Counted from the first letter of the stretch, positions 4,799 through 31,972 are shown. The stretch: 32,000 bases of DNA from Longimicrobiales bacterium (GCA_965232005.1 OZ246950.1:4294311-4326310), one strand, 5' to 3'. The notes: generated by a model not told the origin, from the letters alone. Program-made: numbers and translations.

Positions 4799-4898
4799 AC
4801 GAAACGCCGCGAAATGACAACCGCGCTTTACATAGTGTAAAACGATCTTGACATTTCCGACTCTCGTGGAGACCGCTCCGAGAACCGGATGTTACGCC

Positions 4899-5465: not shown

Positions 5466-5613
5466 CTTTGTTAACGAACCGGGCAAGGGGTGGGCCCGAC
5501 CCGCTACGGGGCGTCGGTGCTCCCCGTCGTCCCGGATCCCACTACTCTATTGGTGGCGCCCGCTCGCCCGCCGGCGCCCGAGAACAAGCAACCTCACCCC
5601 CACCCCCCTTCCC

Positions 5614-5937: not shown

Positions 5938-5939
5938 CC

Positions 5940-10800: not shown

Positions 10801-11067
10801 GCCAAGGGGCGTTTCCGCCCGATCATGCTGACGTCGCTGACCACCTTCCTCGGCTTCATGCCCCTCATCCTCGAAGACGCGACTCAGGCCCAGTTCTTCG
10901 TGCCCTTCTCCGCCTCGATCGGCTGCGGCATCCTCTTCACCACGGTCCTGCTGATGTTGCTCGTGCCGGCGCTTACCTCGCTCCACCAGGGCTGGCTTGC
11001 GCGGCGGGCACGGGCGCGTGGCCGCTCGGATGTCCGCCCTGCGATGCCGGAGCCGACTTCGGCGTAA
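7834..11067 (+). CDS. RND-family efflux transporter permease (AcrB/HAE-like)
   Basis: 1077 aa. The N-terminus GPIAYMASNSVAANLLMFGIIVAGV resembles RND permease starts. There are two large periplasmic loops and two TM bundles (e.g. AIGIVVDDAIVVSEYI and GLAGVVVNDSLVMIDFI, containing the conserved TM4/TM10-type acidic residues). Confidence 0.9.
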   Translation: MSRNPRSHGEAPGPIAYMASNSVAANLLMFGIIVAGVASFSGLELEAWPTVPFNQVEVSVAYPGATPEEVEESIVAKIEDEVKGLGNVKAVKSVAAPGMASVRVEMRSGTDMNDAVAEVEAAVGRIQTFPGETERPQIREMTNAESIMRLVIYGDVPERTLKELAYRIEDELAALPSVSQVETSGIRNYEISIEVPLQRLRALGLTLPEIANTVRRSSLDLSAGSIDTEQSQVRVRTLGQSYDQQDFEEIVLLSRGDGTVVRLGDIAEVRDGFQDVDLIVRHNGLPAVFVEVSRAEGEKVMNVAGAVRQHVADEVAPSLPDGVGVTILNDSSDAFEERAAILMKNGLLGLLLVLLALGLFLELRLAFWVAVGLGVSGVGALAAMMAFDLAIHAVSLFSFVLAIGIVVDDAIVVSEYIHLERMRGTPGVVAAIRGARRIKVPLIFAVLTTIAAFSPLLFIPGGVGETWKALPTIVIAMLVISMIESLLVLPNHLSHHLHGPEWAPRTRLERFVSRIQGQVDLQLGRFVQGPLHRGVSFATDRPGVTLSSAIALLILCFAMLPAGIVPFVFSTEVEGDFATATLEMPDGTTAQRTYEVARELEAAGHRVIERISADRPADAPPLLSGVTVTVGQRPRVDGGGLSPNLTLNPEPNVATISFKLLDAQHRRIPTGDVVQAWREELGVLPHVRALTISGTIYDLGNPVEAVLAHPDPDRLPGIATAVVNDLREVGGIHDIRSDHTPGIPEIQLGLLPEARTLGLTLEDLAWQTRSAFFGAEALRVQRGREEVRVYVRLPEEQRNSITDIERSLVRTAGGAEVPVSRVASLSSGMSPPAIHRQDGQRIVRVTADVDPAVISGGRANRILEDDILAAIVAEDPELTYTFGGEPQQQLESLNALGPGFGIAMILIFALLAIPLRSYTKPFIIMAIIPFGLIGVILGHWVLGVALSSQSFIGVFGLAGVVVNDSLVMIDFIDQELEEGLPAREAIIEGAKGRFRPIMLTSLTTFLGFMPLILEDATQAQFFVPFSASIGCGILFTTVLLMLLVPALTSLHQGWLARRARARGRSDVRPAMPEPTSA

Positions 11068-11111
11068 CCGTTTCGCGGGACAGCTCTTCGGGAAACGTCA
11101 TCTTGCTTTTT

Positions 11112-12179
11112 TCAGCCTATGCGGCGGGTTGATCCCACTTGTGAGCGCAGCTCCGGATAGAACTGACGACAATACAGGCGGTACTTCCCGATCGGGCCGT
11201 CGGCCCGGGAGAGTCGCGGCGGAACCCTGTACCGTTTGCGGTTCCAGATGACAATATCCTGCAGGACGAACCGCCTCTCCTCCGACAGGAAAAAGCGACT
11301 CATCAGCCTGTGGCGCAGCGGCACGGGCAGGAACCCGAGGCCCGCGAAGAATCGCCCCGGCTTGCGGATTTCCCGTACCTGGGTGACCAGGGTCAGCTCA
11401 ATCTGCATCTCCGCCACGGGCGTCCCGAGGACCCACATTCTCGCGTCCATACCGATTGTCTTTTCGTGGATTTCGACAAACGAGAACCCCAACCCGTGAA
11501 CGTGGGTGACGGCCGAGATCTCGGAGCGGATGTTGATCATGCGCGCAAACGTGCGGATGTTCTTGAAGTCGAAGCAGCTCTTCAGGTAGGCGCCGTCGAT
11601 TGTGACCGGAGCGGTCGGTTCTACATCGTAATAGCCGTGCGTGTAGTCCAGGTGCTCCAGGTCCACGGAGTTCTCCGCGGTTTCCTGCGGATGGCCCCGG
11701 AACCGCAGCGTCGTGGAACGCAGGCTGCTCCAGTCCGTGCCGGTGGGCGGCTCCTCGGGAAGGTGCCACTGCGGTGCACGGCCGCCGCTCCCCCACCAGG
11801 CGAAGACCATCCCGAGGATCTCGGTGGTCTCGTAGACCTCCAGCTTCGCGGCTTTGGGGGCAGGGGCATGGGGAACGGCCACGCATTGTCCGGTCGCGTC
11901 GAACTCGAAGCCGTGGAAAGGACACACGAGACAGCCATCTCGCACCATGCCCCCGACAGTCGGTCCCATGTGCGACCCCAGGTGCGGACAGTATGCGCCG
12001 GCCACGCAGATGCGGCCATCCTCGTCGCACCACGCGACGATGTCCTCGCCCATCCAGGTCTTCTCGATCAGCCGTTTGTCGAGAAGGGTCTTGCGGTGCA
12101 CGACGAAGTACCACCCCTCGGGGTACGGCGGCAGTTCATCTATGGCATGGAGCCTGGGCTCATTCGGTTTCGGAATCAT
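11112..12179 (-). CDS. Rieske [2Fe-2S] non-heme iron oxygenase, KshA/Neverland-like
   Basis: 355 aa. Rieske motif CPHLGSHMG...CPFHGFEF (nt ~11913-11990). Mononuclear iron motif ENSVDLEHLDYTH (nt ~11637-11675). C-terminal QDIVIWNRKRY...DGPIGKYRLYCRQFY resembles the KshA/DAF-36-type tail as I remember it. Confidence 0.85.
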   Translation of the reverse strand: MIPKPNEPRLHAIDELPPYPEGWYFVVHRKTLLDKRLIEKTWMGEDIVAWCDEDGRICVAGAYCPHLGSHMGPTVGGMVRDGCLVCPFHGFEFDATGQCVAVPHAPAPKAAKLEVYETTEILGMVFAWWGSGGRAPQWHLPEEPPTGTDWSSLRSTTLRFRGHPQETAENSVDLEHLDYTHGYYDVEPTAPVTIDGAYLKSCFDFKNIRTFARMINIRSEISAVTHVHGLGFSFVEIHEKTIGMDARMWVLGTPVAEMQIELTLVTQVREIRKPGRFFAGLGFLPVPLRHRLMSRFFLSEERRFVLQDIVIWNRKRYRVPPRLSRADGPIGKYRLYCRQFYPELRSQVGSTRRIG

Positions 12180-13273: not shown

Positions 13274-14512
13274 ATGACGAGACGCCATTCCGGGGCGCGT
13301 GCCGCCTTGGCCCGGTACTGCATGTCGGTCGCGCTCTGGGCATTCCTTCAGGCCTGCGCCCCGCCCGACGATGGTCCGCCGACTTCGGTCGTGCGCGACA
13401 GCGCGGGCATCTCGATCGTCGAGTCGTTCCGACCCGCCTGGGAGGATCCCGCGTGGGCGGACTCGGCCACGTGGCGGATCGATCCCGAGCCCCTCCTCGA
13501 CCTCGCCCGCTCCGGCACGGGCGACGCTCACACCTTCTACTCCGTCCGCGGCATGAAGCGGCTCTCCGGCGGCTCCCTCGTCATCCTCAACGCGGGCTCC
13601 GATGAGATCAGGCAGTTCTCGTCCGACGGGCGGTTTCTGGGCTCGTTCGGCGGAGCCGGCGAGGGGCCCGGGGAATTCACCAACCCCCGGCAACTGGAAT
13701 TGGCCGGCGACACGATCCTGGTGCTCGACTGGGATTCCATGCTGAGCATATTCGGTCCCGGCCCGGAGTTCATTCGCGACGTGCGCCTGCACCCGCGCAC
13801 CCGCGCCGTTCACAGCCTCGGAGGCGGCGGCCTCGTCGTGCGCGCCATCACCTCGCTTCCGCCGATCGGCGGTCTGGTCCGCATCCCCGAGGCTCTGCTC
13901 ACGTACCGGCTGGACGGAAGCGGCGGCGACAGCATCGGCTGGACCAAGGGGTACGAGGACTACACTCTCGGCGACATGGGCCAGGTACCCTTTTTCATGA
14001 AGGATGCCGTCGTGGACAGCCGCGGCGAACGGATCTTCACCGGATCTTCCGACCTGATGCAGGTGGAGGAGATGACGGCAAGCGGCGACACGGTAAGGAT
14101 TCTGCGCATACCGGAGTATCCCCTGGCGCTGACGGCCGCGCAGGCCGCGGCCGAGCGGGACAACCGGCTCGACATCCCCCTGCTGCAGCAGACGCCGCTG
14201 CCGCCACGAGTCCAACAGCTTCGCGAATTCATCGAGAACATGCCGCTGCCCACGACCCGGCCCGCCTACGCCGACATGATCGTGGACCCCTCGGGCGCCG
14301 TCTGGCTGCGGCCCTTCCGGGGCGACCACGAGCAGGTCGGACCGGAGTCCTGGCTGGTGCTGGATCCCGGTGGCCGCTGGCTCGGCAGCGTGGAAGTGCC
14401 CGAGGACTTCCGCGTCTGGGACATCGGCATGGACGAAGTGCTGGGCGTGTGGCGTGACGAACTGGACGTGCAGCATCCACAGGTGCTGCGCCTGCAAAGG
14501 GACAGCCAATGA
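13274..14512 (+). CDS. Lipoprotein, NHL-like / 6-bladed beta-propeller family (paralog 1)
   Basis: 412 aa. Signal plus lipobox-like WAFLQAC. Motifs such as GSFGGAGEGPGEFTNPRQLEL are typical of NHL/6-bladed propeller blades. It is collinear with the next gene over its whole length. Confidence 0.75.
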   Translation: MTRRHSGARAALARYCMSVALWAFLQACAPPDDGPPTSVVRDSAGISIVESFRPAWEDPAWADSATWRIDPEPLLDLARSGTGDAHTFYSVRGMKRLSGGSLVILNAGSDEIRQFSSDGRFLGSFGGAGEGPGEFTNPRQLELAGDTILVLDWDSMLSIFGPGPEFIRDVRLHPRTRAVHSLGGGGLVVRAITSLPPIGGLVRIPEALLTYRLDGSGGDSIGWTKGYEDYTLGDMGQVPFFMKDAVVDSRGERIFTGSSDLMQVEEMTASGDTVRILRIPEYPLALTAAQAAAERDNRLDIPLLQQTPLPPRVQQLREFIENMPLPTTRPAYADMIVDPSGAVWLRPFRGDHEQVGPESWLVLDPGGRWLGSVEVPEDFRVWDIGMDEVLGVWRDELDVQHPQVLRLQRDSQ

Positions 14513-15678
14513 AGATCGTCCTCCCGGCGCTCGCCGCGCTCCTCGCCTCCTCCTGCGCCCCCGCCGACGACGCTCCACCGCTCGCCGTCCAGCGCGACAG
14601 CGCCGGCATCGCAATCGTCGAGTCCTTCGCGCCCGCCTGGGGCGATTCGGCGCGCTGGCGGATCGGCCCGGAGCCCCTGCTCGACCTGGCGGAATCCGGC
14701 ACGGGCGACGCGCACGACTTCTACCGGGTCCGGAACGTGACGCGGCTCCCCGACGGTGGCATCGCGGTCGTGAACCGAGGCTCCGCGGAGATCCGGAAGT
14801 TCTCGGCCGACGGAAGGTTGGTCGGCTCGGTCGGAGGCTACGGCGAGGGGCCGGGCGAGTTCTCGAACGTGCAGCAGGCGGAAGTCGTCGGCGATTCCCT
14901 GCTCGTGCGGGACGTTCACCGCGTCGCGCTCTTCGGTCCCGATCTGCGGCACGTCCGCACCCTGCAACTGCACCCCGGTGTCAGGAGTATGCACTATCTG
15001 GGCAACGGCACTATGGTCGCGCCGGTGATTGTGGACTACCCCGAGGAATACGGTCTCGTGCGGGCTTCGGAAGCGCTCCTGGTGTACGATCTGGAAGGCA
15101 TGCGCCGCGACAGCATCGGCCGGACCCCAGGTTCGGAAGAGTACGTGGCCGAGGCGCTCATGGGGTCTCCCCTCTTCGGCAAGACCTCCGTGCTCGACAA
15201 CCACGGCGACAGGATCTTCCTGGGCTCTTCGGACCACATGCAGGTCGAGGAGATCGACACAAGCGGCGACACCGTTCGAATTCTCCGAATCCCCGACTAC
15301 CCGCTGGCGCTCAGCCCGGAACAGGTACAGGCAGAACGGAACCTCCGCCTCAACCCTCCGCTGCCACCGGGGGTGACGTCTCTTCCCCCACCCTTCGTCG
15401 AGGCCGTGGAGGCGATGCCGTCTCCGGAGACCCGACCGGCATACGCGGACATGCTTGTCGACCCGACCGGCGCGGTCTGGCTTCGCCCCTTCCGCGGAAG
15501 CAGCGAACAGGGCGGCCCGGAGCACTGGTTGGTGCTCGGCCCCGACGGAGCCTGGCTCGGAAACGTCGAAATGCCCGGGAACTTCGTGGTGAGGGAAATT
15601 GGTGTGGACGAGATCCTCGGGGTCTGGACCAGTGAGCTCGACGTACAGCATCCGCAGGTGTGGCGGTTGAACCGGTAG
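14509..15678 (+). CDS. Lipoprotein, NHL-like / 6-bladed beta-propeller family (paralog 2)
   Basis: 389 aa. MKIVLPALAALLASSC lipobox. GSVGGYGEGPGEFSNVQQAEV. Long identical blocks shared with paralog 1 (RDSAGI.IVESF.PAW, GPEPLLDLA.SGTGDAH, SGDTVRILRIP.YPLAL, RPAYADM.VDP.GAVWLRPFRG, ELDVQHPQV.RL). An ATGA overlap joins it to the upstream gene. Confidence 0.85.
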   Translation: MKIVLPALAALLASSCAPADDAPPLAVQRDSAGIAIVESFAPAWGDSARWRIGPEPLLDLAESGTGDAHDFYRVRNVTRLPDGGIAVVNRGSAEIRKFSADGRLVGSVGGYGEGPGEFSNVQQAEVVGDSLLVRDVHRVALFGPDLRHVRTLQLHPGVRSMHYLGNGTMVAPVIVDYPEEYGLVRASEALLVYDLEGMRRDSIGRTPGSEEYVAEALMGSPLFGKTSVLDNHGDRIFLGSSDHMQVEEIDTSGDTVRILRIPDYPLALSPEQVQAERNLRLNPPLPPGVTSLPPPFVEAVEAMPSPETRPAYADMLVDPTGAVWLRPFRGSSEQGGPEHWLVLGPDGAWLGNVEMPGNFVVREIGVDEILGVWTSELDVQHPQVWRLNR

Positions 15679-16360: not shown

Positions 16361-19114
16361 ATGAAATCTCCCCCCTCCCCCCGCCCCGCCGCCCGCCCTA
16401 CGCCGGCGCTGGCCCGACACTCGCTCTCGGCGACCATCTTCGCGCTTGTCCACCTCCCCTCCCCGGCGCTGGCCCGACTCTCGCTCGCGGCCACCATCCT
16501 CGCGCTCCTCCACCTCCCCACCCCCACCGTAGCCCAGCGCCTCCCCGACCCCTCGCCCGGCGACCTCGCCACGCTCTCCGTCCCGCGCTTCGAGATCGCG
16601 CCGTCGCCCATCGAGCTGACCGGTCCCGTGCGACCGGGCGAGTACCTCGGCGTCACCGGACCGCGCGCGGCATGGCTGGGGGTCGAGACCGGCGAGGCGG
16701 AGCTGTGGGTGCATCCGCTCAAGGTGGGCAGCGGCTTCCGGCTCTCGTTTTCGACGCCTGGCTACGGCTCGCCCATTCCCGGCGACCGGATCGCGCGCAC
16801 GGTGCACGTCCGGCCCGAGATCACCACGATCACGTACAGCCACGCGGCCTTCCAGGTGCGCCAGCACATTCTTGCGCCCCGCGACACGGCCGCGTCCGGT
16901 CTCCTCGTTCTGCTCGAGGTCGACAGCCCGGATCCGATGGAGATCGTCGTCGAGTTCCACCCGGTCCTCAACTACATGTGGCCGGGTTCGCTGGGCGGGC
17001 AGTATGCGTACTGGGACGGGGAGCGGCGCGTCTTCGTGCTCTCCGAGAGCCTGCAGACGCGCAATGCGGTGGTGGGCTCGCCGTGGGCGACGAACTCGGT
17101 CGAGCATCCGGCGCATCAGCTCGGCGAGGCGCCGCGCACGATGGTGATTCCGGTCGACCCGGAGCGCGCGCGCGGCGAGTTCATTCCGATCGCGGTGGCG
17201 GCGGGAACCGTCCCGCGCGACACTGTTTTCGCCCGCTATGCGCGGCTGATTTCGGGCGCCGGCATGCTCTATCGGGACACCCGGGCATGGGCTGATTCGG
17301 TGCTGGCCACCACGGCCTCCGTCGAGACACCCGACCCCCAGCTCGACGTGGCCCTGGAGTGGGCGAAGATCAACCTCGAGGAGCAGCGCGTCTGCAACCC
17401 GGACCTGGGGTGCGGGTTCGTGGCCGGCTGGGGTCTGTCGGGCGCCGGCGGGCGGCCCGGCTTCGGCTGGTTTTTCGGCGGCGACGCGATGATCAACACC
17501 TATGCCATGGACGCGCTCGGGCAGTGGGAGCTGGTGGCCGAGGAGCTCGCATTCCTCGCGGGCTACCAGCGCGACGACGGCAAGATCACGCACGAGATCT
17601 CGCAGGCGGCCGCGCATATCGACTGGTTCGACACCTATCCCTACGCCTACTACCACGCCGACACGACCCCCCACTGGATGTCCGCGTTGCACCACTACTG
17701 GCGCGCGAGCGGCGACGACGACCTGGTGCGCGAGCTGTGGCCGGCCTACCGGCGCGCGTGGGCGTGGTGCCTGAGCGCCGAGACCGACGGCGACGGGATC
17801 ATCGAGAACACGGTGGGCGGGCTCGGCGCTGTCGAGGTCGGCGGGCTCGGCGAGGCGCTCCACCAGGACATCTACCTGGCCGGCGTCTGGGTGGCGGCGA
17901 TCGAGGGCACGCTGGCCATGGCGGAGGAGATGGGCGACGGCGAGCTTGCCGCCCAGGCCCGCGAGATCGCCCCCATCGCCCGCGCGACCCTCAACGACGA
18001 CTACTGGCGGCCGGACGAAGGGCATCACGCGTTCGGGATCCTCGCCGGCGGCGGCACCAACGACAACCTGACCGTGTGGCCGGCCACCGCCGCCGCCTTC
18101 GGCCTGCTCGACGACGCCCGCGCCCGCTCCACCCTGACCCTCATGGCCGGCGACCGCGTGTCGTCGGATTGGGGCGCCCACATGCTCTCGACGGACAGCG
18201 ACCTCTACGACCCGCTCCAGTACAACATGGGGACCGTTTGGCCCTTCGTGACCGGATTCGCGTCGTGGGCGCAGTACCGCTACCGCCGCCCCTGGGCCGG
18301 ATTCCACCTCATGGACGCGGTCAAGCAGATGACCTTCGACTGGAGCCTCGGCCGCCACGGCGAGCTCTTCTCGGGCAGTTTCTACCAGCCCCTCGACCAG
18401 ACCGTCCCGCACCAGTTCTTCGCCACCTCGATGCTCGTCACCCCCCTGCTCCGCGGCGTCTTCGGGTGGGATCCGGACGCGCCGAACAGCCGCGCGCGCC
18501 TGGCGCCGCAGCTGCCGCCGGACTGGCCGCGGGCGGCGGTGCGGGGGCTGCGTGTGGGCGATACCATGCTCGATGTGGTGATCGAGCAGCAGTGGACGAC
18601 GACCGGCGGGCAGCAACGTGTGGAGATCACCAGCCGGGGCCCGGCGGTCGAGATCGACTTGGTGCCGGATGTGGCCTTGGGCGCGACCGGCGTGACCGTC
18701 AGCCAGGCCGGCAGGGGCGGCGCGATCATGCCCCCGGGCGCGCTCGCCGACCGGACTCGTGGCCAAGTCCCGCCCCTCCGCGTCGCGCTGAGCACCGGCG
18801 AACCCGCCGAGATCGCCGTGACCTGGAACGGAGGCCTCGCGGTCGCCCCTCCCCGCATCGATTTGAAGCCCGGCCAGCGGAGCGCCGGGCTGCGGGTGCT
18901 GAATCTCGAGGTGGACGGCGACGGGTGGCTGCTCGACCTGGAGGGCACGGCGGGGCGCGAGTACGGAGTCGGGCTCTTCGGCCCGCCAGTGGACTTTGCG
19001 GCAACCGACCGCGGGGCGACGGTGTCGATGCGGTCGGACGGCACCCTCCGGGTCCGGTTCGCCGAAGGCGAGGGCCGCGCAACCGTGTCGATCCGCCTGA
19101 CGCCGAGCGGGTGA
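16361..19114 (+). CDS. Secreted (alpha/alpha)6 six-hairpin glycosidase, amylo-alpha-1,6-glucosidase (GDE_C)-like
   Basis: 917 aa. The central region GFVAGWGLSG...GWFFGGDAMINTYAMDALGQWELVAEELAFLAGYQRDDGKITHEIS...YYHADTTPHWMSALHHYWRASGDDDLVRELWPAYRRAWAW matches the GDE_C/six-hairpin pattern as I remember it. The N-terminus is Pro/Ala-rich and signal-like. Confidence 0.75.
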   Translation: MKSPPSPRPAARPTPALARHSLSATIFALVHLPSPALARLSLAATILALLHLPTPTVAQRLPDPSPGDLATLSVPRFEIAPSPIELTGPVRPGEYLGVTGPRAAWLGVETGEAELWVHPLKVGSGFRLSFSTPGYGSPIPGDRIARTVHVRPEITTITYSHAAFQVRQHILAPRDTAASGLLVLLEVDSPDPMEIVVEFHPVLNYMWPGSLGGQYAYWDGERRVFVLSESLQTRNAVVGSPWATNSVEHPAHQLGEAPRTMVIPVDPERARGEFIPIAVAAGTVPRDTVFARYARLISGAGMLYRDTRAWADSVLATTASVETPDPQLDVALEWAKINLEEQRVCNPDLGCGFVAGWGLSGAGGRPGFGWFFGGDAMINTYAMDALGQWELVAEELAFLAGYQRDDGKITHEISQAAAHIDWFDTYPYAYYHADTTPHWMSALHHYWRASGDDDLVRELWPAYRRAWAWCLSAETDGDGIIENTVGGLGAVEVGGLGEALHQDIYLAGVWVAAIEGTLAMAEEMGDGELAAQAREIAPIARATLNDDYWRPDEGHHAFGILAGGGTNDNLTVWPATAAAFGLLDDARARSTLTLMAGDRVSSDWGAHMLSTDSDLYDPLQYNMGTVWPFVTGFASWAQYRYRRPWAGFHLMDAVKQMTFDWSLGRHGELFSGSFYQPLDQTVPHQFFATSMLVTPLLRGVFGWDPDAPNSRARLAPQLPPDWPRAAVRGLRVGDTMLDVVIEQQWTTTGGQQRVEITSRGPAVEIDLVPDVALGATGVTVSQAGRGGAIMPPGALADRTRGQVPPLRVALSTGEPAEIAVTWNGGLAVAPPRIDLKPGQRSAGLRVLNLEVDGDGWLLDLEGTAGREYGVGLFGPPVDFAATDRGATVSMRSDGTLRVRFAEGEGRATVSIRLTPSG
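16405..16524 (+). repeat. In-frame 60-bp tandem duplication (2 copies, 53/60 identical) within the N-terminal signal-like region of the glycosidase gene
   Basis: Copy 1 (16405-16464) and copy 2 (16465-16524) differ at 7 positions by hand alignment. They encode ALARHSLSATIFALVHLPSP / ALARLSLAATILALLHLPTP. Confidence 0.9.
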
Positions 19115-19281
19115 GGCGAGCTGGCTCGGTCGCTCGGTTGCGGCGTTCTTTCTGTCACGGCTATTCTTGTGATGGTTGTTGCGGTGCAATACACACCCTG
19201 CGTCTGCGTCTGATGCGCTCGCGGCGCCGTTCCGGCACGCGTGCCGCGTAGTGTATCTCGGCTGCGGAGAGACGAGAACCG

Positions 19282-21333
19282 ATGACTGACACGGCGAAAA
19301 CGGCGGAGACGGCGGAGAGTTCGACGGCTGAATCCCTGAGCCTGGTTGACGAACTCATCCTGATGCTTCTCGACGAGAAGGGCGGCTACTTCCACCAGGT
19401 ACCCGGCTGGCAACTGAACTGCGCCATCGTCGGCGGAGTGCTGGCGGAACTCTCCTTCCGGTCGCGGCTCGACTCGGACTTGACATCCCTGTTCGTCGTG
19501 GACCCGGCCGAAACGGGCGATCCCGTCCTGGACCCCATCCTGAGGGAAATCGTGGACGCACCGGACCAACGCACTGCCCGGTACTGGATCGAACGGCTCG
19601 CCTCCCGTGCGGAGTCGGTCATCGATGTTACTCTGGCGCGCCTGGTTGAACGGGATATCCTCCAACACCACGAAGGCGAATTCTGGACACTGTCTCCCAC
19701 CGTCCTGCATGGGCAACAGTACGGGATGTCTGCGGAAGGCACGCCCGACCAGTTCATCAAGGCGCGCATCGGCAAGTTTCTCTTCACCGACGAGATTCCC
19801 GACCCCAGAGACGTCGTCATCGTGTGCCTCGTCAATACGTGCGACGTCTTTCGCCTGATTTTTGAACTCGATGAGAAGGCGGAGCAGCGCATCAAGTACA
19901 TCTGCCAGATGGACTTGATCGGCCGGTCCATTGCCGATGCAGTTTCTCGGAACTTGGTCGGCCCGATTCGTAGACATTCCGCTCTTTCCAAGAAGATTCC
20001 GACGGTTCCGCTGCGGAAGCTGCTGGCCAATCCCCATATCCGAGACGGCAACCTGAACGCCTTGTTCGGGCACCTCGCGGAGGAGTACGGCCCGGTGTTC
20101 CGTGTCCGCCCTCCCTTCTCGGAGCCCATGACCTTCCTGGCCGGACTCGAGACGAACCGCTGGGTGCACAAGCAGGGGCGAGCGTACCTGAGAACCAGGG
20201 ACTACTTCAGCGACTTCGAGAAGGTGTACGGTGCGACCGGCGTCCTCCCCGCCCTGGACGGCGCCGATCACTTCCGGCTTCGCAAGTTCCTGGCGCCGGC
20301 CTATTCCCAGGCGAGGCTGGCAGGGCAGATGGATCAGCTCTACACCAAGGGCCGCGCGTACATGGCGGGCTTGAAGGTTGGGGACTCCTACCGCGCCACG
20401 TCCATGAGCCGGGCGCTGGTCAACGCCCAGCTTTCACCGCTGTTCATCGGCGTCGATACGCAAGATCTCATGGACGACCTGATGGTGTACAAGGAACGGG
20501 CCCTCAGCGTGCATATCGCCCAACTCCTGCCCAAGTTCACGCTGAATACCCCGGGCATGAAACGCCGGGCGAGAGTCCTCGACACATTGATGGAACGGGT
20601 GTTGCAAGTCAACACGCCCGGCCAACGGGCGGACGGCCCGCGGAACCTGGTGGACGATTATCTCAGCCTGCACGCGAGCGACCCGCAGTTTCTCCCGGAG
20701 TCCAACCTGCTCTTCTCTTTTTCCGCAGCCTTGATTGCCAGCGTATACCTCGGCGATACGTTCAGCCTCATGGTCTACGCCATGGCGTCTCAGCCGGACC
20801 TGTACGCCAGGATCCAATCCGAAGCGGATGCCCTGTTCGCCAACGGCGACCCCGGGAAGGAGAACTTCACCCCCGCCAACATCGACGTGACGCACCGCTT
20901 CCTCATGGAGTGCCTGCGCATGTACCCGATCGTGACCATGTCGGTTCGCAACGTGATGAATACCTGCGTGGTCGAGAACCACGAGCTGCCCCTGGGGGAA
21001 CGGATCCACATCGCCATGACCGCCACGCATTACATGAGCGACGTCTTTCCCGAACCCCACAAGTTCGACATCGACCGCTTCCTGCCGTCGCGCAAGAAGT
21101 ATGACAGCCTCGGGTTCGCCCCGTACGGGCTGGGCACGCACAGGTGTCTCGGTACCCGGTGGATGGAGTTGCACCTGGCGGTCAACCTGCTGATGCTGGC
21201 GCATCACTTCACGATTGAGGTGTCGCCGGCGAAGTACGTGCGGAAGCTCCAATTCAATCCGTTTCCGTCGATGAAGCCCAGCAAGAAGCTGAAATTCCGC
21301 ATCCTGGAGCAGCGGCGCGAGTTGCCCGCTTGA
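19282..21333 (+). CDS. Fusion protein: N-terminal GPP34/GOLPH3-family domain + C-terminal cytochrome P450
   Basis: 683 aa. The N-terminal ~230 aa are LSLVDELILMLLDEKGGYF...AIVGGVLAELSF...ETGDPVLDPILREI...IPDPRDVVIVCLVNTCDVF, a GPP34-like pattern. The C-terminal ~430 aa carry the P450 ExxR (ECLRMYP) and the heme-thiolate loop FAPYGLGTHRCLGTRW (Cys codon 21145-21147, in frame). Confidence 0.85.
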   Translation: MTDTAKTAETAESSTAESLSLVDELILMLLDEKGGYFHQVPGWQLNCAIVGGVLAELSFRSRLDSDLTSLFVVDPAETGDPVLDPILREIVDAPDQRTARYWIERLASRAESVIDVTLARLVERDILQHHEGEFWTLSPTVLHGQQYGMSAEGTPDQFIKARIGKFLFTDEIPDPRDVVIVCLVNTCDVFRLIFELDEKAEQRIKYICQMDLIGRSIADAVSRNLVGPIRRHSALSKKIPTVPLRKLLANPHIRDGNLNALFGHLAEEYGPVFRVRPPFSEPMTFLAGLETNRWVHKQGRAYLRTRDYFSDFEKVYGATGVLPALDGADHFRLRKFLAPAYSQARLAGQMDQLYTKGRAYMAGLKVGDSYRATSMSRALVNAQLSPLFIGVDTQDLMDDLMVYKERALSVHIAQLLPKFTLNTPGMKRRARVLDTLMERVLQVNTPGQRADGPRNLVDDYLSLHASDPQFLPESNLLFSFSAALIASVYLGDTFSLMVYAMASQPDLYARIQSEADALFANGDPGKENFTPANIDVTHRFLMECLRMYPIVTMSVRNVMNTCVVENHELPLGERIHIAMTATHYMSDVFPEPHKFDIDRFLPSRKKYDSLGFAPYGLGTHRCLGTRWMELHLAVNLLMLAHHFTIEVSPAKYVRKLQFNPFPSMKPSKKLKFRILEQRRELPA

Positions 21334-22379
21334 GGCGCCACCAGATCCGGGTGGGCGAACTGTCGAAAGCGCTGAGGGATGCGTACCGCGGATCGGGCGT
21401 CGCGCGTCGCGTGCGCCACTTCAACAGCTGGGTCGACCGGGCGGTGCCGGACGCCGGAGGCGGGGGCGGCTACGACCACGCGGAAACGGTCAGGGAATAC
21501 TACGCGCTTTGCAACGGCTTCATGGTGTGGGGTTGGGGTGAATCCCTGCATTTCGCGCCCCTTACGCCTCATGAAAGTCTGGAGGAGTCCAAGGTCCGGC
21601 ACCAGCGCGCGATGATCGCCGAGCTGGAGTTGGAACAGGGCATGACGGTGGTCGACGTTGGTTGCGGGGTCGGTGGCCCCATGCGCCGCGTCGTCCGCGA
21701 GACCGGCAGCAGGGTCGTGGGTATCAACATCAATGAGGTCCAGCTGGCGCAAGCGAAGAAGTTGAACGCCGAGGCGGGGCTCGATCACCTGGTGGACCTG
21801 AAACGGTGCAGCTTCATGGACATGAGCGCCATCGAGGACAACACCTTCGACCGGGGTTACGCCATAGAGTCGACGTGCCATGCGCAGGACAAGCAACGCG
21901 CCTTCGCGGAGATATTCCGCGTGCTGAAACCGGGTGCCCTGTTCTGGGGTCAGGAAATGTGTCTTACGGACCGGTTCGATCCGAACGACGGTCGGCACCG
22001 TGCCGTCAAGCAGGATCTCATGCGCGGTATCGCGCTGCACGACATCGCCACGTTCGGAGAAGTGAATCACGCGCTCGAAGCCGCGGGATTTCAAGTCATT
22101 GAAGGAAGGGACTGGGACGTCCAGGAGGGACCCTCCACGCCTTGGTATCAACCCATGGAAAGTCGCCACGGGACGTTGGGGAACGCCTTGATAAGGCTTC
22201 CGTGGGGCCGCAAGGCGATCATCGCAGGATCGAAGCTGGCCGAGCTGCTGCGGCTCTTTCCGAATGGCTCGGCGGAAGTCGTTCGGCTCCTCGATCGGAC
22301 CGCGGAGGCGTATGTCGCGGGCGGCAAGACGGGTATCTTCACGCCGCTGTACTGTTTTCTGGCACGTAAACCCGTTTAG
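21330..22379 (+). CDS. Sterol C-24 methyltransferase (ERG6/SMT)-like SAM-dependent methyltransferase
   Basis: ~349 aa. YYALCNGFMVWGWGESLHFAP (family region I, cf. Y-E-Y-GWG-x-S-FHF). SAM motif VVDVGCGVGGP. NTFDRGYAIESTCHA, FRVLKPGALF, and the C-terminal AYVAGGKTGIFTPLYCFLARKP (sterol-MT C-terminal domain pattern). By eye it is collinear with yeast ERG6 as I recall it. Candidate TTG start at 21330 overlaps the P450 stop (21331-21333); an alternative GTG lies at 21351. Confidence 0.88.
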   Translation: MRRHQIRVGELSKALRDAYRGSGVARRVRHFNSWVDRAVPDAGGGGGYDHAETVREYYALCNGFMVWGWGESLHFAPLTPHESLEESKVRHQRAMIAELELEQGMTVVDVGCGVGGPMRRVVRETGSRVVGININEVQLAQAKKLNAEAGLDHLVDLKRCSFMDMSAIEDNTFDRGYAIESTCHAQDKQRAFAEIFRVLKPGALFWGQEMCLTDRFDPNDGRHRAVKQDLMRGIALHDIATFGEVNHALEAAGFQVIEGRDWDVQEGPSTPWYQPMESRHGTLGNALIRLPWGRKAIIAGSKLAELLRLFPNGSAEVVRLLDRTAEAYVAGGKTGIFTPLYCFLARKPV

Positions 22380-22421
22380 GTCCGAAAACAACGCTCATCG
22401 CCCGGTCATGAGGTCTGCCCC

Positions 22422-24506
22422 ATGCACGTAGGCGCCCTCGAAGCACGCAACTGGGCCGGCCTGGTCTTCACCGATGGCCCTGACGACGGAATCGCGGTGC
22501 GCCTCGCCTTCACCACCCCGGCAGGCGATCGTCGCCATCACGGCGACTGGTACTGGATGGTCTCGCGCGTCGGCACGCACGCGCCGGACGGCTCCTACGC
22601 ACGCGTCGAGTTCGACCTGGACGCCGAGCCGTCGCCATCGTCTGCCCCGGCGGCGGGCACCCTGATCCTGGAGTGGTCACGCCGCGCGGATGCCGTCGCA
22701 CTCAGCGCCACCGTGACGGCGCCCGGCCGTCTGGAGCTGGTCGGGGATGCACCGTGGGGATGGAGCGCGCGCTGGGTCGAGGTGGTGGGGGATGAGAGGG
22801 CGGAGATGGCGGGCGAGGCCGGAGATCCCGGCGCGGACGGCTGGCGGGCCGCGCTCGAAACGAGGGAGATTGCGGCCGTGTTCTCGGCGGGGACGGGGAC
22901 GGGCGACGATGTCCACCCCGCGCGCACCCTCGATGTCGCCCCGGGGGCCACCGGGCGCGTGGCCATGGTAGCCGCGTGGGGCGGAGACCCGCTCGCCCGG
23001 GCCCACAAGCTCCTCCCCGACGCGGACACCTGGATCGAAGAGGCGCGGACGGGTGTGGCCCGCCGCGGGCTCCGCGCGACCACCCGGCCGGGCCAGGGCG
23101 CGGCCGGCTCCGCCAAGGCGCGGCCTTCGCTGGCGGGTCCGCCGCACGCCACCCATTCCGAACTGCTCGAGAGCATCGCCGACAACCTGATGTGGACCGT
23201 CCTCCTCCAGCCTGAAACCGGCAGGCTCTACACCCCTGCCGGCCGCCGCTGGATCTTCCCGAGACCCACCGGGAGACACCGGGCACCGAAGCCGCGCGAT
23301 CCCGGTTCCGGCCCCGGCACCCAGTCGGGTTCCGCCGCGACCTCGGACCTGTCGCCGCACCTTCCCGAGCCCGATGACTGGACCATCTTCGGATGGGACA
23401 CCTTCTTCAACGCCCTCCTGCTCGCGAACGTCTCGGGCGAGCTGGCCTGGTCGACCCTCCTCGCCGGCGTCGAAGCGCGCTACCCGAACGGCAACATTCC
23501 CAACTGGCGGAGCCGCCGGGGCGGCACCCCCGACCGCTCCCAGCCCCCCGTCGGCTCCTTCGCGGCGTTGAAGCTGCACCGCATCCATCCCGACCACGCT
23601 TCCCTGGCCGCCGCCTGGCCCGGGCTCCTTGCCTGGTCCGACTGGTGGGTCGCCGACAAGAATGGGCGGCCGCGCCGTGAAGGCCTCACTCCGGGCCTGC
23701 TCTCGTGGGGATCGGACACGGCGCTGGTGCCGGGCCCCGAGCAGGTCCCGGAGTGGGAAGTCGGCGCGAGCGGCCACCAGCGCGCGGCCTGGGAGTCGGG
23801 CCAGGACGACCTCCCGCTTTGGGACGAGGCCGAGTGGGATGCCGAGCGGGAAGTCCTCGCCATGTCTGCGGTGGATCTGTGCAGCTACCGCGCGCTCGAC
23901 CTCGAGTGCCTGGCGCGCATCGCGCGCATCCTGGGGGACGGGCCGGCCGCGCGGCGCCTGGACGCCAGTCGGCAGCGCCTCGCCGAGACGATGAACCGGA
24001 CCCTCTGGTCCGAGGCCGCCGGCCTCTACCTCGACGAACTGCCCTCGGGACGGTCGCCGCGCGTGGCAGCGTCGCACTTCCTCCCCCTGCTCGCGGGCAT
24101 TCCTTCACAGCAGCGTGCCCGGCGCATGGTCGACGTGCTGCGCGACCCGGCCCGGTTCTGGGGCGACTGGGTGCTTCCCACGATCTCGCGCGACGATCCC
24201 GCGTTCGGCGACCAGCAGTACTGGCGCGGCTCGATCTGGCCGCCGATGAACTACCTCGTTCTGCAGGGTTTGCGGCGGTACGGATTCGACGACCTCGCGG
24301 CGGAGCTCGCGTGGAAGGGGGCCGACATGTTTCTGGCGGACCGGCGCCGCACGGGGTTCTGCCGCGAGAACTTCGATGCGCGCACGGGGCGCGGGCAGGG
24401 GCGGCGGTTTCAGAGTTGGGGGCCGCTGTTTGCGCTGGGGGGTCTGGAGGAGTTGGGCATCGACGCCGGAGCAGGCGGACTGGCGGCTCGGCCCCGGACT
24501 GTCTAG
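22422..24506 (+). CDS. (alpha/alpha)6 glycoside hydrolase, GH63 / MGH1 / trehalase-like
   Basis: 694 aa. DDWTIFGWDTFFNALLLANVSGELAWSTLLAGVEARYPNGNIPNW...SQPPVGSFAALKL and the C-terminal QQYWRGSIWPPMNYLVLQGLRRYG are patterns I associate with GH63-like/MGH-like hydrolases. It starts 42 nt after the methyltransferase gene on the same strand. Confidence 0.7.
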   Translation: MHVGALEARNWAGLVFTDGPDDGIAVRLAFTTPAGDRRHHGDWYWMVSRVGTHAPDGSYARVEFDLDAEPSPSSAPAAGTLILEWSRRADAVALSATVTAPGRLELVGDAPWGWSARWVEVVGDERAEMAGEAGDPGADGWRAALETREIAAVFSAGTGTGDDVHPARTLDVAPGATGRVAMVAAWGGDPLARAHKLLPDADTWIEEARTGVARRGLRATTRPGQGAAGSAKARPSLAGPPHATHSELLESIADNLMWTVLLQPETGRLYTPAGRRWIFPRPTGRHRAPKPRDPGSGPGTQSGSAATSDLSPHLPEPDDWTIFGWDTFFNALLLANVSGELAWSTLLAGVEARYPNGNIPNWRSRRGGTPDRSQPPVGSFAALKLHRIHPDHASLAAAWPGLLAWSDWWVADKNGRPRREGLTPGLLSWGSDTALVPGPEQVPEWEVGASGHQRAAWESGQDDLPLWDEAEWDAEREVLAMSAVDLCSYRALDLECLARIARILGDGPAARRLDASRQRLAETMNRTLWSEAAGLYLDELPSGRSPRVAASHFLPLLAGIPSQQRARRMVDVLRDPARFWGDWVLPTISRDDPAFGDQQYWRGSIWPPMNYLVLQGLRRYGFDDLAAELAWKGADMFLADRRRTGFCRENFDARTGRGQGRRFQSWGPLFALGGLEELGIDAGAGGLAARPRTV

Positions 24507-24847
24507 AGCCCCAGAACCAGTCGAAGCCCCGTTTCCACCTGTGTCATGAGGCTCCGGGAGATTTGCCCGCAGCGCTCGCAGAGGTGGTCTTCATCGAGGG
24601 TAACAAGCTGGGTCACGTTGGCGACGGAGTTTCTCGGCAACCCTGTCCCGGACGCGGCTAACAGCACGTTACCGGGTGCGTCGAGGTATCGCGTGTTCGA
24701 CGTAAGCGCTACGCCGATCACCGTTCGCAGCCGGCTTCGGTTGAAGGCATCGGCCTGCACCACAAGGATCGGCCTCCGGAAGCCCGGCTCCGATGCACAC
24801 GGTTCCTCCAGGTCAGCCCACCATACCTCCCGCCGCGCGACTACCAC
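24503..24847 (-). CDS. mazF: MazF/PemK-family endoribonuclease toxin
   Basis: 114 aa, GTG start. REVWWADLEEP...GFRRPILVVQADAFN...VIGVALTSN......VANVTQLVTLD is the classic PemK/MazF pattern. It overlaps the upstream antitoxin gene by 7 nt. Confidence 0.9.
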   Translation of the reverse strand: MVVARREVWWADLEEPCASEPGFRRPILVVQADAFNRSRLRTVIGVALTSNTRYLDAPGNVLLAASGTGLPRNSVANVTQLVTLDEDHLCERCGQISRSLMTQVETGLRLVLGL

Positions 24848-25074
24848 TCTTCAGAGATCGATCGAGCCTGGGCCCGGCGCAGTGCGGGTTCCATTCCACT
24901 CGGCAAGTCCGAGTAGACGGAGTTCAGTCTGCAGGTGATGTGCTCGTCCTGGTGCTTGGCCACGTATTCGGCGAGGGCTGTCGCATAGAGTTCGCTGCGC
25001 GAGACCTTGAGCCGCTCCGCCAGCGAGTCGGCGGTGGCAAATAGTTCGTCCGGTAGTGAAATCGCTGTTTTCAT
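24841..25074 (-). CDS. Ribbon-helix-helix (CopG-like) antitoxin partner of MazF
   Basis: 77 aa from the ATG at 25074: MKTAISLPDELFATADSLAERLKVSRSELYATALAEYV is an RHH fold pattern. The longer form from 25134 is rejected because it would start inside the promoter-like AT-rich segment. Confidence 0.75.
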   Translation of the reverse strand: MKTAISLPDELFATADSLAERLKVSRSELYATALAEYVAKHQDEHITCRLNSVYSDLPSGMEPALRRAQARSISEEW

Positions 25075-25080
25075 ACTGTA

Positions 25081-25109
25081 GTTATAGTTTAGTATGACCG
25101 CTGAATCAA
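25081..25109 (-). promoter_or_regulatory. Sigma70-like promoter candidate for the mazEF-like operon (TTGATT - 17 nt - TATAAC)
   Basis: Minus strand: ttgatt cagcggtcatactaaac tataac tacagt ATG. This would give a very short or absent leader. A flanking inverted repeat CATACT...AGTATG (25072-25096) is a possible operator. Confidence 0.4.
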
Positions 25110-25166
25110 GTTCCGCGGGTCCTGGTTTGGACAACCGTGCTCAGCCGGCGGCCCGCAGGATTGACG

Positions 25167-29813: not shown

Positions 29814-29978
29814 TCACTCACCCCAATCCTCCTCCATCTCAGGTGCCTCGCCCAGTGTGATGGGATCCAGGGCGAGGATTTCAAGTTCGGTGCCGCACTC
29901 CTCGCACTCCAGGAGCTCTCCTTCGACGGGGTCGTCCGAAATGGTGACCTCCGCCTCGCAAACAGGACATTCTGACAT
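29814..29978 (-). CDS. lysW: Amino-group carrier protein LysW
   Basis: 54 aa: MSECPVCEAEVTISDDPVEGELLECEECGTELEILALDPITLGEAPEMEEDWGE. It has a CxxC...CxxC zinc ribbon and the diagnostic acidic C-terminus ending EDWGE. In the ORF track it appears only as the tail of a spurious 606-aa ORF. Confidence 0.9.
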   Translation of the reverse strand: MSECPVCEAEVTISDDPVEGELLECEECGTELEILALDPITLGEAPEMEEDWGE

Positions 29979-30058
29979 GGGTGACAGCCTCGCGCACGGT
30001 TGATACACGGTGTCGGAAAAGGGTAATCTACCGGATCGCGGGCGCGGGGGTAGTCGGG

Positions 30059-31972
30059 TCAGCCTTCCCCTTCCGCCAGCGACGACGTTGGAATCTCGCG
30101 CGCCTCGACCGGATGGCCGTCGCGTGAGACGACGTACGCTTCCATCGCACGATACGCCGGCAATCCCAGGGACTTGAGCATGTCGGCCGTCTCCCGGTTG
30201 CGGTCCACCACCCGCTCCCAGAACTCGCGCGGGTCCGCACCCGGGAACGGCGCCGAGTCCTTCTGCGACTCGTGCCGGAAGATGGCCTGGACCTTTCTGC
30301 GCATCTCCCCGTCCGAGAGCGGCACGAGCACCGTGGCCTCGCCCACGCCCCACTCCTGCCAGGCGCCGCGGTACAGCCACACCCAGGGCGGCTCGCCGCT
30401 GTAACGCACCAGGCCGCCCTCGACCGCTTCGAGGCACATCCGGTGGGTGCCGTGGGGATCGGAGAGGTCGCCGGCGGCGAAGACCATCGTGGGCCTGGTC
30501 TCTTCCAGCACCTCGGTGACGATGTCCACATCGAGTCGGGAAATCGGGTTCTTGCGCACCTTGCCCGTCCGGTAGAAGGGCAGGTCGAGGAAACGCGCGC
30601 AGTCGGCGGCCAGGCCGAGCGTCTCGATTCCCGCCGTCGCCTCGCTCTCGCGGATGATGCGCTTGAGGTTCTGGACGACGGCCGGATCGACATCGCCGGG
30701 CTCCTTGCGGGCGAGATCCTTCTCCACCGACGCCACCACCGCCTCGACCTGCTCCGGGTCCCCGAGGTCGACGACGCGGGCCGCGCGTCGCATGAAATCG
30801 AGGTAGCGGCGGACCTCGTGGTCGAAGACGGCGATGTTCCCCGACGTCTGGTACGCCACCGTGACGCGGTTGCCATTCTCGACGAGCTTGCGCAGCAGCC
30901 CCCCCATCGAGATCACGTCGTCGTCCGGGTGCGGCGAGAAGACCAGGATGTCCTGGCCGCGGGGCAGCCGGCTCTTCCCCCGGATCTTCGAGATGAGGAC
31001 GTTGAACACCTGTCCATTGAGGGGCTCGGCCGATCCATGCCGCGACACCAGCGAGGCCAGGTGATGCTCGCGGTAGTCGTCGGTGGCCAGGTGGAGGATG
31101 GGCTTCCCCGTCTGCAGGCTCAGCCAGATGACGGCCTCGGTCTCGCTCTGCGCGGTCCACTCCACCTCCTGCACCAGCCACGGCGTGCGGACGCGCGTGA
31201 GCTGCTCCGCCGCAGCCGGGTCCAGGTAGACCGTGGCGGCGGGGTGTTGCTGGAGGAAGGTGGCGGCCACGTCGGCGTGCACGCCCCCCTCCACCGCGCG
31301 CAGGACGATTTCGGCCTTGTGCTCGCCCGTGGCCAGCAGAATCACTTCGCGCGCCTCCAGGATGGTCGCGACCCCCATGGTGATCGCTTGCGGCGGCACG
31401 TTCTCCTCGCCGAAGAAGTCCGCCGAGGCGTCCGAGCGCGTCACCGTGTCGAGATAGATGCGCCGTGTACGCGAATCCCGCACCGAGCCCGGCTCGTTGA
31501 ATCCGATGTGCCCGCTGCGACCGATCCCCAGCAGTTGCAGGTCGATGCCGCCCGCATCGCGGATGCGGCGCTCGAAGTCGAGGCAGTGGGCTTCGACCTC
31601 GTCCTCCGGCAGGTCGCCCCTGGGGATGTGACATCGCTCCGGGGGGATGTTGATGTGGTCGAAGAGGTTCTCCCGCATGTAGCGGTGGTAGCTGTGAATG
31701 CTGCCGGGCCGCATGGGGAAGTACTCGTCGAGGTTGAAGGTCACCACGTTGGAGAAGTCGAGCCCCTCCTCGTGATGGAGGCGAATCAGTTCCCGATAGA
31801 CACCGACGGGTGTGGACCCGGTGGCGAGGCCCAGCACGGCGCTGCGCCCCTCGCTGGCGCGCTCCCGGATCAGGGCCGCGATCCGCCCCGCCACCTCGGC
31901 CGCGATGCTGTCGTGGTCCGGCATGACGCGCACGGGGATCCGTTCGCGCCTCGCCGAGATGGATTCGTCCAT
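30059..31972 (-). CDS. nagB: Long-form glucosamine-6-phosphate deaminase (NagB) fused to a C-terminal LmbE/PIG-L-like deacetylase domain
   Basis: 637 aa. The N-terminus GLATGSTPVGVYRELI...VVTFNLDEYFPM...LGIGRSGHIGFNEPGS is NagB. The C-terminal half has VFSPHPDDDVISMGG (PIG-L/LmbE motif) and HRMC. Confidence 0.9.
   Translation of the reverse strand: MDESISARRERIPVRVMPDHDSIAAEVAGRIAALIRERASEGRSAVLGLATGSTPVGVYRELIRLHHEEGLDFSNVVTFNLDEYFPMRPGSIHSYHRYMRENLFDHINIPPERCHIPRGDLPEDEVEAHCLDFERRIRDAGGIDLQLLGIGRSGHIGFNEPGSVRDSRTRRIYLDTVTRSDASADFFGEENVPPQAITMGVATILEAREVILLATGEHKAEIVLRAVEGGVHADVAATFLQQHPAATVYLDPAAAEQLTRVRTPWLVQEVEWTAQSETEAVIWLSLQTGKPILHLATDDYREHHLASLVSRHGSAEPLNGQVFNVLISKIRGKSRLPRGQDILVFSPHPDDDVISMGGLLRKLVENGNRVTVAYQTSGNIAVFDHEVRRYLDFMRRAARVVDLGDPEQVEAVVASVEKDLARKEPGDVDPAVVQNLKRIIRESEATAGIETLGLAADCARFLDLPFYRTGKVRKNPISRLDVDIVTEVLEETRPTMVFAAGDLSDPHGTHRMCLEAVEGGLVRYSGEPPWVWLYRGAWQEWGVGEATVLVPLSDGEMRRKVQAIFRHESQKDSAPFPGADPREFWERVVDRNRETADMLKSLGLPAYRAMEAYVVSRDGHPVEAREIPTSSLAEGEG

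Follow-up and report, generated by a model that had tools for sequence, protein, structure and literature searches.

A GPP34::P450-methyltransferase gene pair in a Longimicrobiales genome as the core of a candidate sterol-tailoring cassette

The gene pair and its two proteins

A stretch of 32,000 nucleotides from a Longimicrobiales bacterium (GCA_965232005.1 OZ246950.1:4294311-4326310), called the window below, carries four consecutive open reading frames (ORFs) on its + strand. They lie at 16361-19114, 19282-21333, 21330-22379 and 22422-24506, with gaps of 167 and 42 nt on either side of the inner two. The encoded proteins are a first glycosidase of (alpha/alpha)6 type, a fusion of GPP34 with a cytochrome P450 (P450), a divergent homologue of sterol methyltransferase (SMT; "SMT-2" type) and a second, GH63/MGH1-like glycosidase. 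A first-pass annotation had described this layout correctly and proposed that the four genes form a sterol operon. Comparison with related loci keeps the inner pair together and assigns it other partners, which this window holds at a distance of 8 to 13 kb: an AcrB-type resistance-nodulation-division (RND) transporter gene (7834-11067, +; Pfam ACR_tran 2.5e-161) and a KshA-type Rieske oxygenase gene (11112-12179, -; Pfam Rieske 3.5e-16, KshA_C 4.9e-20). Both had been overlooked and are members of a conserved cassette, which is split here into the RND and Rieske genes at 7834-12179 and the P450-SMT pair downstream. The glycosidases are local backbone neighbours outside the cassette.

The fusion protein ("GPP34_L") is encoded by a single ORF of 683 residues (19282-21333, +), with GPP34 at approximately residues 21-221 (Pfam GPP34 4.8e-29) and the P450 domain at approximately residues 253-673 (Pfam p450 2.5e-34, the match ending at residue 671). 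The 120 closest database homologues share this architecture, with PF05719 at the N-terminus and PF00067 at the C-terminus. The P450 domain looks catalytically intact, judging from the haem-ligand motif YGLGTHRCLG, the ExxR motif (ECLR) and the LGDT acid-alcohol pair, all of which are present. Its assignment as CYP51 was considered and rejected: identity to the CYP51 of a relative's sterol cluster is 27% over 103 residues, and CYP51 entries in PDB match only at about 1e-17, level with taxadiene hydroxylase and CYP120. By eye, the translation has no N-terminal signal peptide.

In some Longimicrobiales genomes (L001:7553-9612, -, and L006) GPP34 and P450 are unfused: their genes stand side by side between the RND gene and SMT-2, in divergent orientation, and each shows about 40% identity to the matching part of the fusion. 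Rare GPP34-Rieske fusions have also been reported (Ferreira et al. 2025, PMC11706023).

The methyltransferase gene (21330-22379, +; TTG start) encodes 349 residues, and SMT-2 orthologues align from residues 1-3 of this product. The motifs on which the first-pass annotation had based its SMT-like reading are present in the translation, and profile searches find Sterol_MT_C (PF08498) at 2.4e-15 (56.8 bits against a cut-off of 21.7, residues 292-348) and Methyltransf_11 at 8.2e-19. Identity to ERG6 is 35.3%; the ERG6 reference used for alignment was validated in that it yields, to two decimals, the same identities as given by Brown et al. for two Nitrospira genes. Outside its own clade, the nearest relatives are SMT-domain proteins, such as a rice cycloartenol C-24 methyltransferase-like protein (43%) and an SMT of a sponge Acidimicrobiia (42%). 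A neighbour-joining tree of 110 SMT family members, built without outgroup or support values, nests the SMT-2 clade inside the SMT family. On these sequence comparisons the methyltransferase is an SMT family member of a divergent "second SMT" clade and does not group with cyclopropane-fatty-acid, tocopherol or mycolate enzymes. An exact-sequence look-up of the window's protein returned no record.

The conserved regions can be followed residue by residue in ERG6 numbering. Region II (VVDVGCGVGGP) is present with D125, G127, G129, G132 and P133 kept, Region III (YAIESTCHA) with E195 kept, and the C-terminal sterol-methyltransferase residues G333, L341, G352, F357 and P359 are likewise retained. 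Region I departs from its motif: in place of Y81-x-Y83-GWGxxFHF the window has M81, W83 and GWGESLHF (L89), with N at 78; G84, W85, G86, H90 and F91 are kept. Of the 25 residues reported to be invariant among functional SMTs, SMT-2 retains 23, including H90, D125 and E195, the exceptions being L for F89 and N for T78. All of the clade, together with its sisters, carries the M81/L89 signature, which is almost never seen in 90 other representatives of the family. These altered Region I residues line the sterol side-chain pocket. Position 249 is isoleucine; glycine at this position is required for propylation.

One database relative of the methyltransferase (P0069, 477 residues, 80% identical SMT-2) consists of the C-terminal ~130 residues of a KshA_C-type Rieske protein followed by a complete SMT-2. 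Either the fusion is genuine, or gene calling has merged two neighbouring genes on one strand.

The conserved cassette and its genomic setting

Species-representative genomes were scanned for relatives of the methyltransferase; at least 557 stretches encode one, and the best 80 by similarity supplied the loci compared here. Linkage was counted by tblastn of the window proteins against 82 loci, a neighbour being a gene at most 10 kb from the methyltransferase. GPP34::P450 accompanies SMT-2 in 77 of the 82 loci, the Rieske/KshA_C oxygenase in 70, the RND transporter in 44 (at 70-97% identity) and a flavin adenine dinucleotide (FAD)-dependent amine-oxidase/CrtI-like oxidoreductase in 39. Recurrent extra neighbours were found by clustering all ORFs of the loci; they include membrane-fusion and outer-membrane efflux components. 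Other phyla have MMPL transporters that carry a sterol-sensing domain, and in some cassette variants these show weak similarity to BstA and HpnN. The RND protein of the window is a general AcrB-type pump, not BstA. Searches found neither a membrane-fusion or outer-membrane partner gene for it nor an FAD amine-oxidase/CrtI-like oxidoreductase in the window.

The link between the P450 and the methyltransferase is particularly close. At their junction (...GAG TTG CCC GCT TGA GG), read directly from the + strand, the P450 stop codon TGA (21331-21333) overlaps the methyltransferase start codon TTG at 21330, so that the two genes share TTGA (21330-21333). A 4-nt overlap of the same genes occurs in 5 loci, including the closest relative (L082), and the two are same-strand neighbours in 50/82 loci, with gaps mostly of at most ~140 nt. 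The translational coupling suggested in the first-pass annotation is real and conserved. Order and orientation of P450 and SMT vary in the remaining loci, and the linkage survives this variation, which argues for functional coupling. More distant relatives differ in context. A sister methyltransferase of 41% identity (L086) has GPP34::P450 directly downstream; for another sister of 50% identity (P0123), 16 kb of sequence contained neither a GPP34 nor a P450 gene, and the 42%-identical Acidimicrobiia sponge SMT, which has a canonical Region I, lies in an unrelated gene context without GPP34.

Among the best 80 loci, SMT-2 is 74-94% identical across metagenome-assembled genomes (MAGs) of more than 10 phyla, which points to horizontal transfer. 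Host labels include Longimicrobiales/Gemmatimonadota, Latescibacterota, Nitrospirales, Dehalococcoidia/Chloroflexota and Acidobacteriota, as well as Nitrospinota, Opitutales, Binatia, Rhodothermales and Actinomycetes. The related loci come mostly from sponge-holobiont MAGs (sponge-study isolate names, Candidatus Palauibacter species), and one related contig is from a coral-reef MAG. A plasmid collection gave no match to the P450-methyltransferase pair. Base composition was examined as a sign of foreign origin and set aside: GC content is 61-63% in the pair and 72-73% in the glycosidase genes, but the signal is weak because the third-position GC of the pair (0.78-0.83) overlaps that of other backbone genes.

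The Rieske protein finds its best PDB match in 3-ketosteroid 9alpha-hydroxylase (3.8e-21). Identification with SdmA was rejected, since NCBIfam NF052579 scores 40.9 bits against it and 414.7 bits against the canonical sdmA product of a Nitrospirales relative (L036). The C-terminal domains also differ, being KshA_C in the window's protein and VanA_C in the L036 sdmA product.

The same Nitrospirales locus joins the cassette to sterol synthesis. Its genes run ERG24, sdmA, sdmB, SMT-1, FAD oxidoreductase, outer-membrane beta-barrel protein, Rieske/KshA_C, SMT-2 and GPP34::P450, with an SMT-2 that is a 78% orthologue of the window's methyltransferase. Compared with ERG6, its two SMTs show identities of 35.63% and 38.81%, the very figures published for Nitrospira genes 2682229270 and 2682229274. 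By this agreement of sequence values, the 78% orthologue is gene 2682229270 of the Nitrospira MAG of Brown et al. (2023, PMC10070321), who list it as an ERG6 homologue at 35.63%. That gene adjoins a cluster of squalene monooxygenase (SMO)-oxidosqualene cyclase (OSC), CYP51, ERG24 and sdmAB.

At 8 loci, canonical sterol genes directly adjoin the cassette. In addition, one 2.43-Mb contig carries a cassette with a 91%-identical SMT-2 (L084) and, about 800 kb apart, an sdmB-sdmA-ERG24-CYP51-SMO/OSC-SMT-1 cluster (L083), which was reached via a search with ERG24. Relatives therefore carry the early sterol pathway that is missing from the window. Within the 32-kb window itself, Pfam scans of large ORFs and tblastn with a relative's SMO-OSC, CYP51, ERG24, sdmA and sdmB found no squalene epoxidase or cyclase homologue, in agreement with the first-pass annotation. 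The adjoining sterol clusters in 8 loci and the same-contig cluster in a close relative make a sterol-tailoring role the best reading of the cassette.

The L083 region holds a second arrangement of this kind. At L083:889-7243 (ena:ERZ25070915:contig_2), another GPP34::P450 gene, 30% identical, overlaps a Sulfotransfer_3 gene by 4 nt, beside CysN/C- and CysD-type sulfate-activation genes. This pair directly adjoins the sdmB-sdmA-ERG24-CYP51-SMO/OSC-SMT-1 cluster, on the contig that also bears the 91%-identical SMT-2. Sulfated sterols are known sponge metabolites. The arrangement suggests a sterol-sulfating module on the GPP34::P450 theme and hints at a family of such modules.

The glycosidases follow a different pattern. 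The first (16361-19114, +) has weak Pfam matches to MGH1-like and GH116, and the second (22422-24506, +) matches MGH1-like at 4.7e-46, GH63 at 5.8e-18 and trehalase, with YgjK and TTHA0978 as PDB matches. As the first-pass annotation had noted, they are unrelated to each other (BLASTP E = 0.037, not significant). The first lies near SMT-2 in 9/82 loci and the second in 5/82, all in Gemmatimonadota; the expectation of a conserved four-gene neighbourhood is thus contradicted. Two loci (L010 and L023) have the order RND, P450, SMT, Rieske, two paralogues of unknown function, glycosidase 1, glycosidase 2. Here only 117-120 nt separate the two glycosidase genes, and the cassette lies upstream of both. 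Homology of the window to L010 and L023 breaks just after the stop of the first glycosidase and resumes just before the start of the second. Because the glycosidase genes are adjacent in those loci, the P450-SMT pair was inserted between them in the window. Alignment with L007, L010 and L023 places the upstream insertion junction in the intergenic region 19115-19281 (+), which contains a terminator-like hairpin at 19129-19144, after the first glycosidase; this is weak evidence, and the total of terminator-like sites in the region is not above a shuffled control. A promoter scan of the region found no sigma-70-like site.

The closest backbone relative (L007) also has its methyltransferase between the same two glycosidase genes. 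Upstream of it, at L007:9836-10010, stands a GPP34::P450 remnant of about 20 codons, in which the start, ATGACTGAC, is joined to the last codons, CTGCCCGCGTGA; the remnant is an internal deletion. A different GPP34::P450, 41% identical, lies between the RND and Rieske genes of this locus. The N-terminus of the window's first glycosidase (16361-16530, +) contains a tandem duplication of a ~20-residue signal-peptide-like segment (ALARHSLSATIFALVHLPSP / ALARLSLAATILALLHLPTP), and the true start codon of this gene may lie further downstream.

The remaining features of the window were assigned by Pfam. They comprise an amidase (1599-3236, +), a YhgA-like transposase (3446-4453, +), a HipA toxin (5940-7235, -), a MazF-type toxin (24503-24847, -) and, from 25197 onward on the - strand, LysW-type lysine/arginine biosynthesis genes. 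Toxin and transposase genes thus flank the region, with the YhgA-like transposase and HipA at 3446-7235 and the MazF-type toxin and its upstream partner at 24503-25134. At a related locus (L008) a MazF pair stands between the first glycosidase and the RND gene. These mobile and toxin genes, together with the position of the L008 pair, fit a rearrangement-prone neighbourhood.

Two paralogous genes at 13274-15678 (+) match no Pfam family in the scan. Their products have 412 and 389 residues and hydrophobic N-termini, the genes overlap by 4 nt, and the second product has a cysteine at residue 16; the pair is conserved only in four Longimicrobiales loci. Finally, a 606-residue ORF at 29814-31634 (-) has a Pfam match only to a C-terminal LysW zinc ribbon. 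Its third-position GC is 0.47, against 0.76-0.92 in 14 other measured genes of the window, and most of it is probably non-coding in that frame.

Proposed role and rival explanations

The reading favoured here, to which a probability of roughly two in three is given, is that the P450-SMT pair forms the core of a sterol-tailoring and export cassette spread horizontally among sponge, and some coral, bacteria, with the glycosidases uninvolved. A full cassette would comprise an RND (or MMPL/sterol-sensing-domain) transporter, GPP34::P450, SMT-2 and the KshA-type Rieske oxygenase, with the FAD amine-oxidase/CrtI-like oxidoreductase in about half of the loci. In this window the pair would have come to lie in the gap between two glycosidase genes that were there before it. 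The part of the earlier proposal that assigned sterol tailoring to the P450 and the methyltransferase is thus retained; glycosidase membership is not, and nothing points to steryl glycosides.

Under this scheme, symbiont sterols would be supplied by a canonical SMO-OSC/CYP51/ERG24/SdmAB/SMT-1 cluster elsewhere in the genome. SMT-2 would then pass a methyl group from S-adenosylmethionine to a side-chain olefin. Because the sterol-binding Region I is altered, its substrate may differ from desmosterol and 24-methylenecholesterol and might perhaps be a product of the partner oxidases. Oxidation or desaturation of the sterol would fall to the P450 and Rieske proteins, and the transporter would move the product outward. 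GPP34 would bind membrane or lipid peripherally and in this way bring the soluble P450 to sterol embedded in the membrane. We infer that the substrate is a sterol made by the bacterium itself and the product is exported, and that GPP34 tethers the soluble P450 to the membrane or its lipid substrate.

Several points weigh against this reading. Rieske proteins of the KshA fold are familiar chiefly from the breakdown of steroids. Neither a ferredoxin nor a reductase that could serve the P450 or the Rieske protein lies in the cassette. The linkage figures, resting on the best 80 loci by similarity, describe a close clade, and the tree that nests SMT-2 among SMTs has neither outgroup nor support values. 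The comparison with GOLPH3 used below is a low-identity alignment, although the numbering of the reference sequence agrees with published residue positions. An AlphaFold2 model of the fusion (31 close homologues) reached a mean predicted local distance difference test score (pLDDT) of 56.9 and a predicted template modelling score (pTM) of 0.38, with a poor P450 domain and unreadable domain packing. A further difficulty concerns the methyltransferase. In the work of Brown and Welander, F89 is conserved in every functional SMT tested (Brown and Welander 2025, bioRxiv 10.64898/2025.12.19.695621). As the SMT-2 clade has L89, proteins of this type are probably inactive on desmosterol and 24-methylenecholesterol, and the clade could be inactive altogether or act on a non-sterol substrate. 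If the second Nitrospira SMT assayed is gene 2682229270, it would have shown no activity on these two substrates.

This last point leads to an alternative in which SMT-2 methylates another olefinic lipid (a hopanoid, another triterpenoid or a fatty acyl chain) or is catalytically dead. The changes in Region I, which contacts the sterol side chain, at 81, 83 and 89, with 78 also varying, favour it, as does the expected inactivity on the two standard substrates; the FAD amine-oxidase/CrtI-like neighbour moreover recalls fatty-acid methylase-desaturase pairs. It is nevertheless judged unlikely, because nearly all residues conserved in functional SMTs and the C-terminal sterol-methyltransferase domain are kept, the partners are of steroid type, the gene itself is linked to sterol clusters, and the strong conservation across phyla argues against a dead enzyme. 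Somewhat less unlikely, yet still improbable, is that the cassette works on host sterols, through uptake, detoxification or initial degradation of sponge sterols. Sponge tissue is sterol-rich, and the KshA type of the Rieske enzyme and the lack of a cyclase in the 32-kb window would fit. A functional SMT has also been described from a Chlamydiae MAG without sterol synthesis (Brown et al. 2023, PMC10070321). The conserved neighbours, however, include no KstD, Hsa or Mce4-type catabolic genes, and the biosynthetic clusters that adjoin the cassette in 8 loci, or share a contig with it in a close relative, speak for synthesis. The pump type points the same way: AcrB-type RND proteins are exporters.

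Eukaryotic GOLPH3 binds phosphatidylinositol 4-phosphate (PI4P), which lends support to a further model, in which GPP34 proteins, the P450 fusion included, are secreted PI4P-binding effectors that stop phagosome maturation in sponge cells and the methyltransferase is incidental. A P450, on the other hand, needs cytoplasmic redox partners, and by eye the fusion lacks a signal peptide. Of the GOLPH3 pocket residues, W81 is kept in the fusion clade, whereas R90, R171 and R174 align with V/A, E and I (low-identity alignment). The model was proposed by Ferreira et al. (2025, PMC11706023) as an anti-phagocytosis function, and GPP34 is indeed enriched in sponge symbionts, with the fused form (GPP34_L, 656 proteins) exclusive to them and found in many phyla; metatranscriptomes of Aplysina aerophoba show expression of GPP34 genes, fused and unfused alike. 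The locking of the fusion gene to an SMT, a steroid-type Rieske oxygenase, lipid transporters and in places a sterol-synthesis cluster makes this explanation doubtful. The effector and sterol ideas could be reconciled if the sterol product of the cassette, rather than the protein, acts on the host. Least probable is the original four-gene operon remodelling a steryl glycoside, with the glycosidases trimming the sugar and the P450 and methyltransferase modifying the aglycone. The shared strand and short gaps favour it, the 42-nt gap has no terminator-like site, so that read-through from the methyltransferase into the GH63-like gene is possible, and L007 repeats the placement of the methyltransferase. 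Against this stand the rarity of the glycosidases near SMT-2 and their restriction to one phylum, their direct adjacency in L010 and L023, the glycosidase-free cassettes of all other phyla, the hairpin after the first glycosidase, and the family of the second enzyme: GH63/MGH1-like proteins are known for hydrolysis of alpha-glucosides and compatible solutes, not of steryl glycosides. Same-strand adjacency is a misleading guide to functional partners here.

If a sterol-tailoring and export cassette is accepted, a bolder extension can be tentatively put forward, and it is considerably less probable than the cassette itself. The cassette might make and export an uncharacterised sterol with unconventional alkylation or oxidation. 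Sponge microbiomes of more than 10 phyla would have this lipid in common, and SMT-2 would show a new substrate preference or regiochemistry. SMT-2 might then perform, for example, side-chain methylations leading to sponge biomarker sterols, and GPP34 would be a membrane-targeting module of sterol-tailoring enzymes and not a phagocytosis effector.

The finding matters beyond this genome. A very widespread cassette of sponge symbionts contains a second, divergent sterol methyltransferase. Should SMT-2 need its P450, Rieske or oxidoreductase partners, or another substrate, this would explain its apparent inactivity in standard assays and point to where new sterol chemistry may be sought. Steranes with an alkylated side chain serve as a fossil record of early eukaryotes and sponges, and a bacterial route to unusual sterols therefore bears on that record.

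Comparison with known systems

The bacterial SMTs of Brown et al. (2023, PMC10070321) and Brown and Welander (2025) belong to the same family (Methyltransf_11 and Sterol_MT_C) and come from the same habitat. The window's SMT-2 is, however, the ERG6-distant second copy, whereas SMTs of the canonical-cluster type are ~39-42% identical to ERG6. With M81, W83, L89 and I249, it also lacks the F89 of the functional SMTs and G249. These papers describe no GPP34::P450, KshA-type Rieske or RND partners and make no mention of a P450.

The core of sterol synthesis in sponge symbionts has been described separately. Kelly et al. (2022, PMC9531527) reported ERG24-CYP51-LSS clusters in MAGs from Ircinia and other sponges, in ~10 phyla including Gemmatimonadota; the sterol genes are horizontally transferred and under purifying selection, and SMT1/ERG6 is enriched in these microbiomes. 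Those clusters consist of core synthesis genes, of which the window holds none. Its satellite tailoring and transport cassette is, in relatives, either adjacent to the core cluster or hundreds of kb away from it. The Methylococcus-type pathway (SdmA/SdmB, Bst transporters) likewise has a Rieske oxygenase and a transporter of the RND superfamily alongside sterol enzymes, but the Rieske protein of the cassette is of KshA_C type and not SdmA, and the transporter of the window is of AcrB type and not BstA.

The fusion has the same two-domain architecture as the GPP34_L proteins of Ferreira et al. (2025, PMC11706023) and the same spread across symbiont phyla. P450 genes next to unfused GPP34 genes, as seen in L001, are also reported there. 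That paper proposes an effector without reference to sterols, and the words "sterol" and "methyltransferase" are absent from its main text; here the fusion gene is coupled to an SMT and forms part of a cassette of steroid type.

Each component is already in print, from the gene families and their habitat to the fusion protein (PMC10070321, PMC9531527, PMC11706023), and the earlier statement that the gene combination was undescribed does not extend to its components. Only their conserved association, in which GPP34_L is accompanied by a second, divergent SMT, an oxygenase of KshA type and transporters, was not found in the searched literature, and neither was the reading of this set as satellite sterol tailoring. 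The finding joins two stories published separately, GPP34 as one hallmark of sponge symbiosis and sterol genes as another; this link is what is new here, and it suggests a concrete biochemical role for GPP34.

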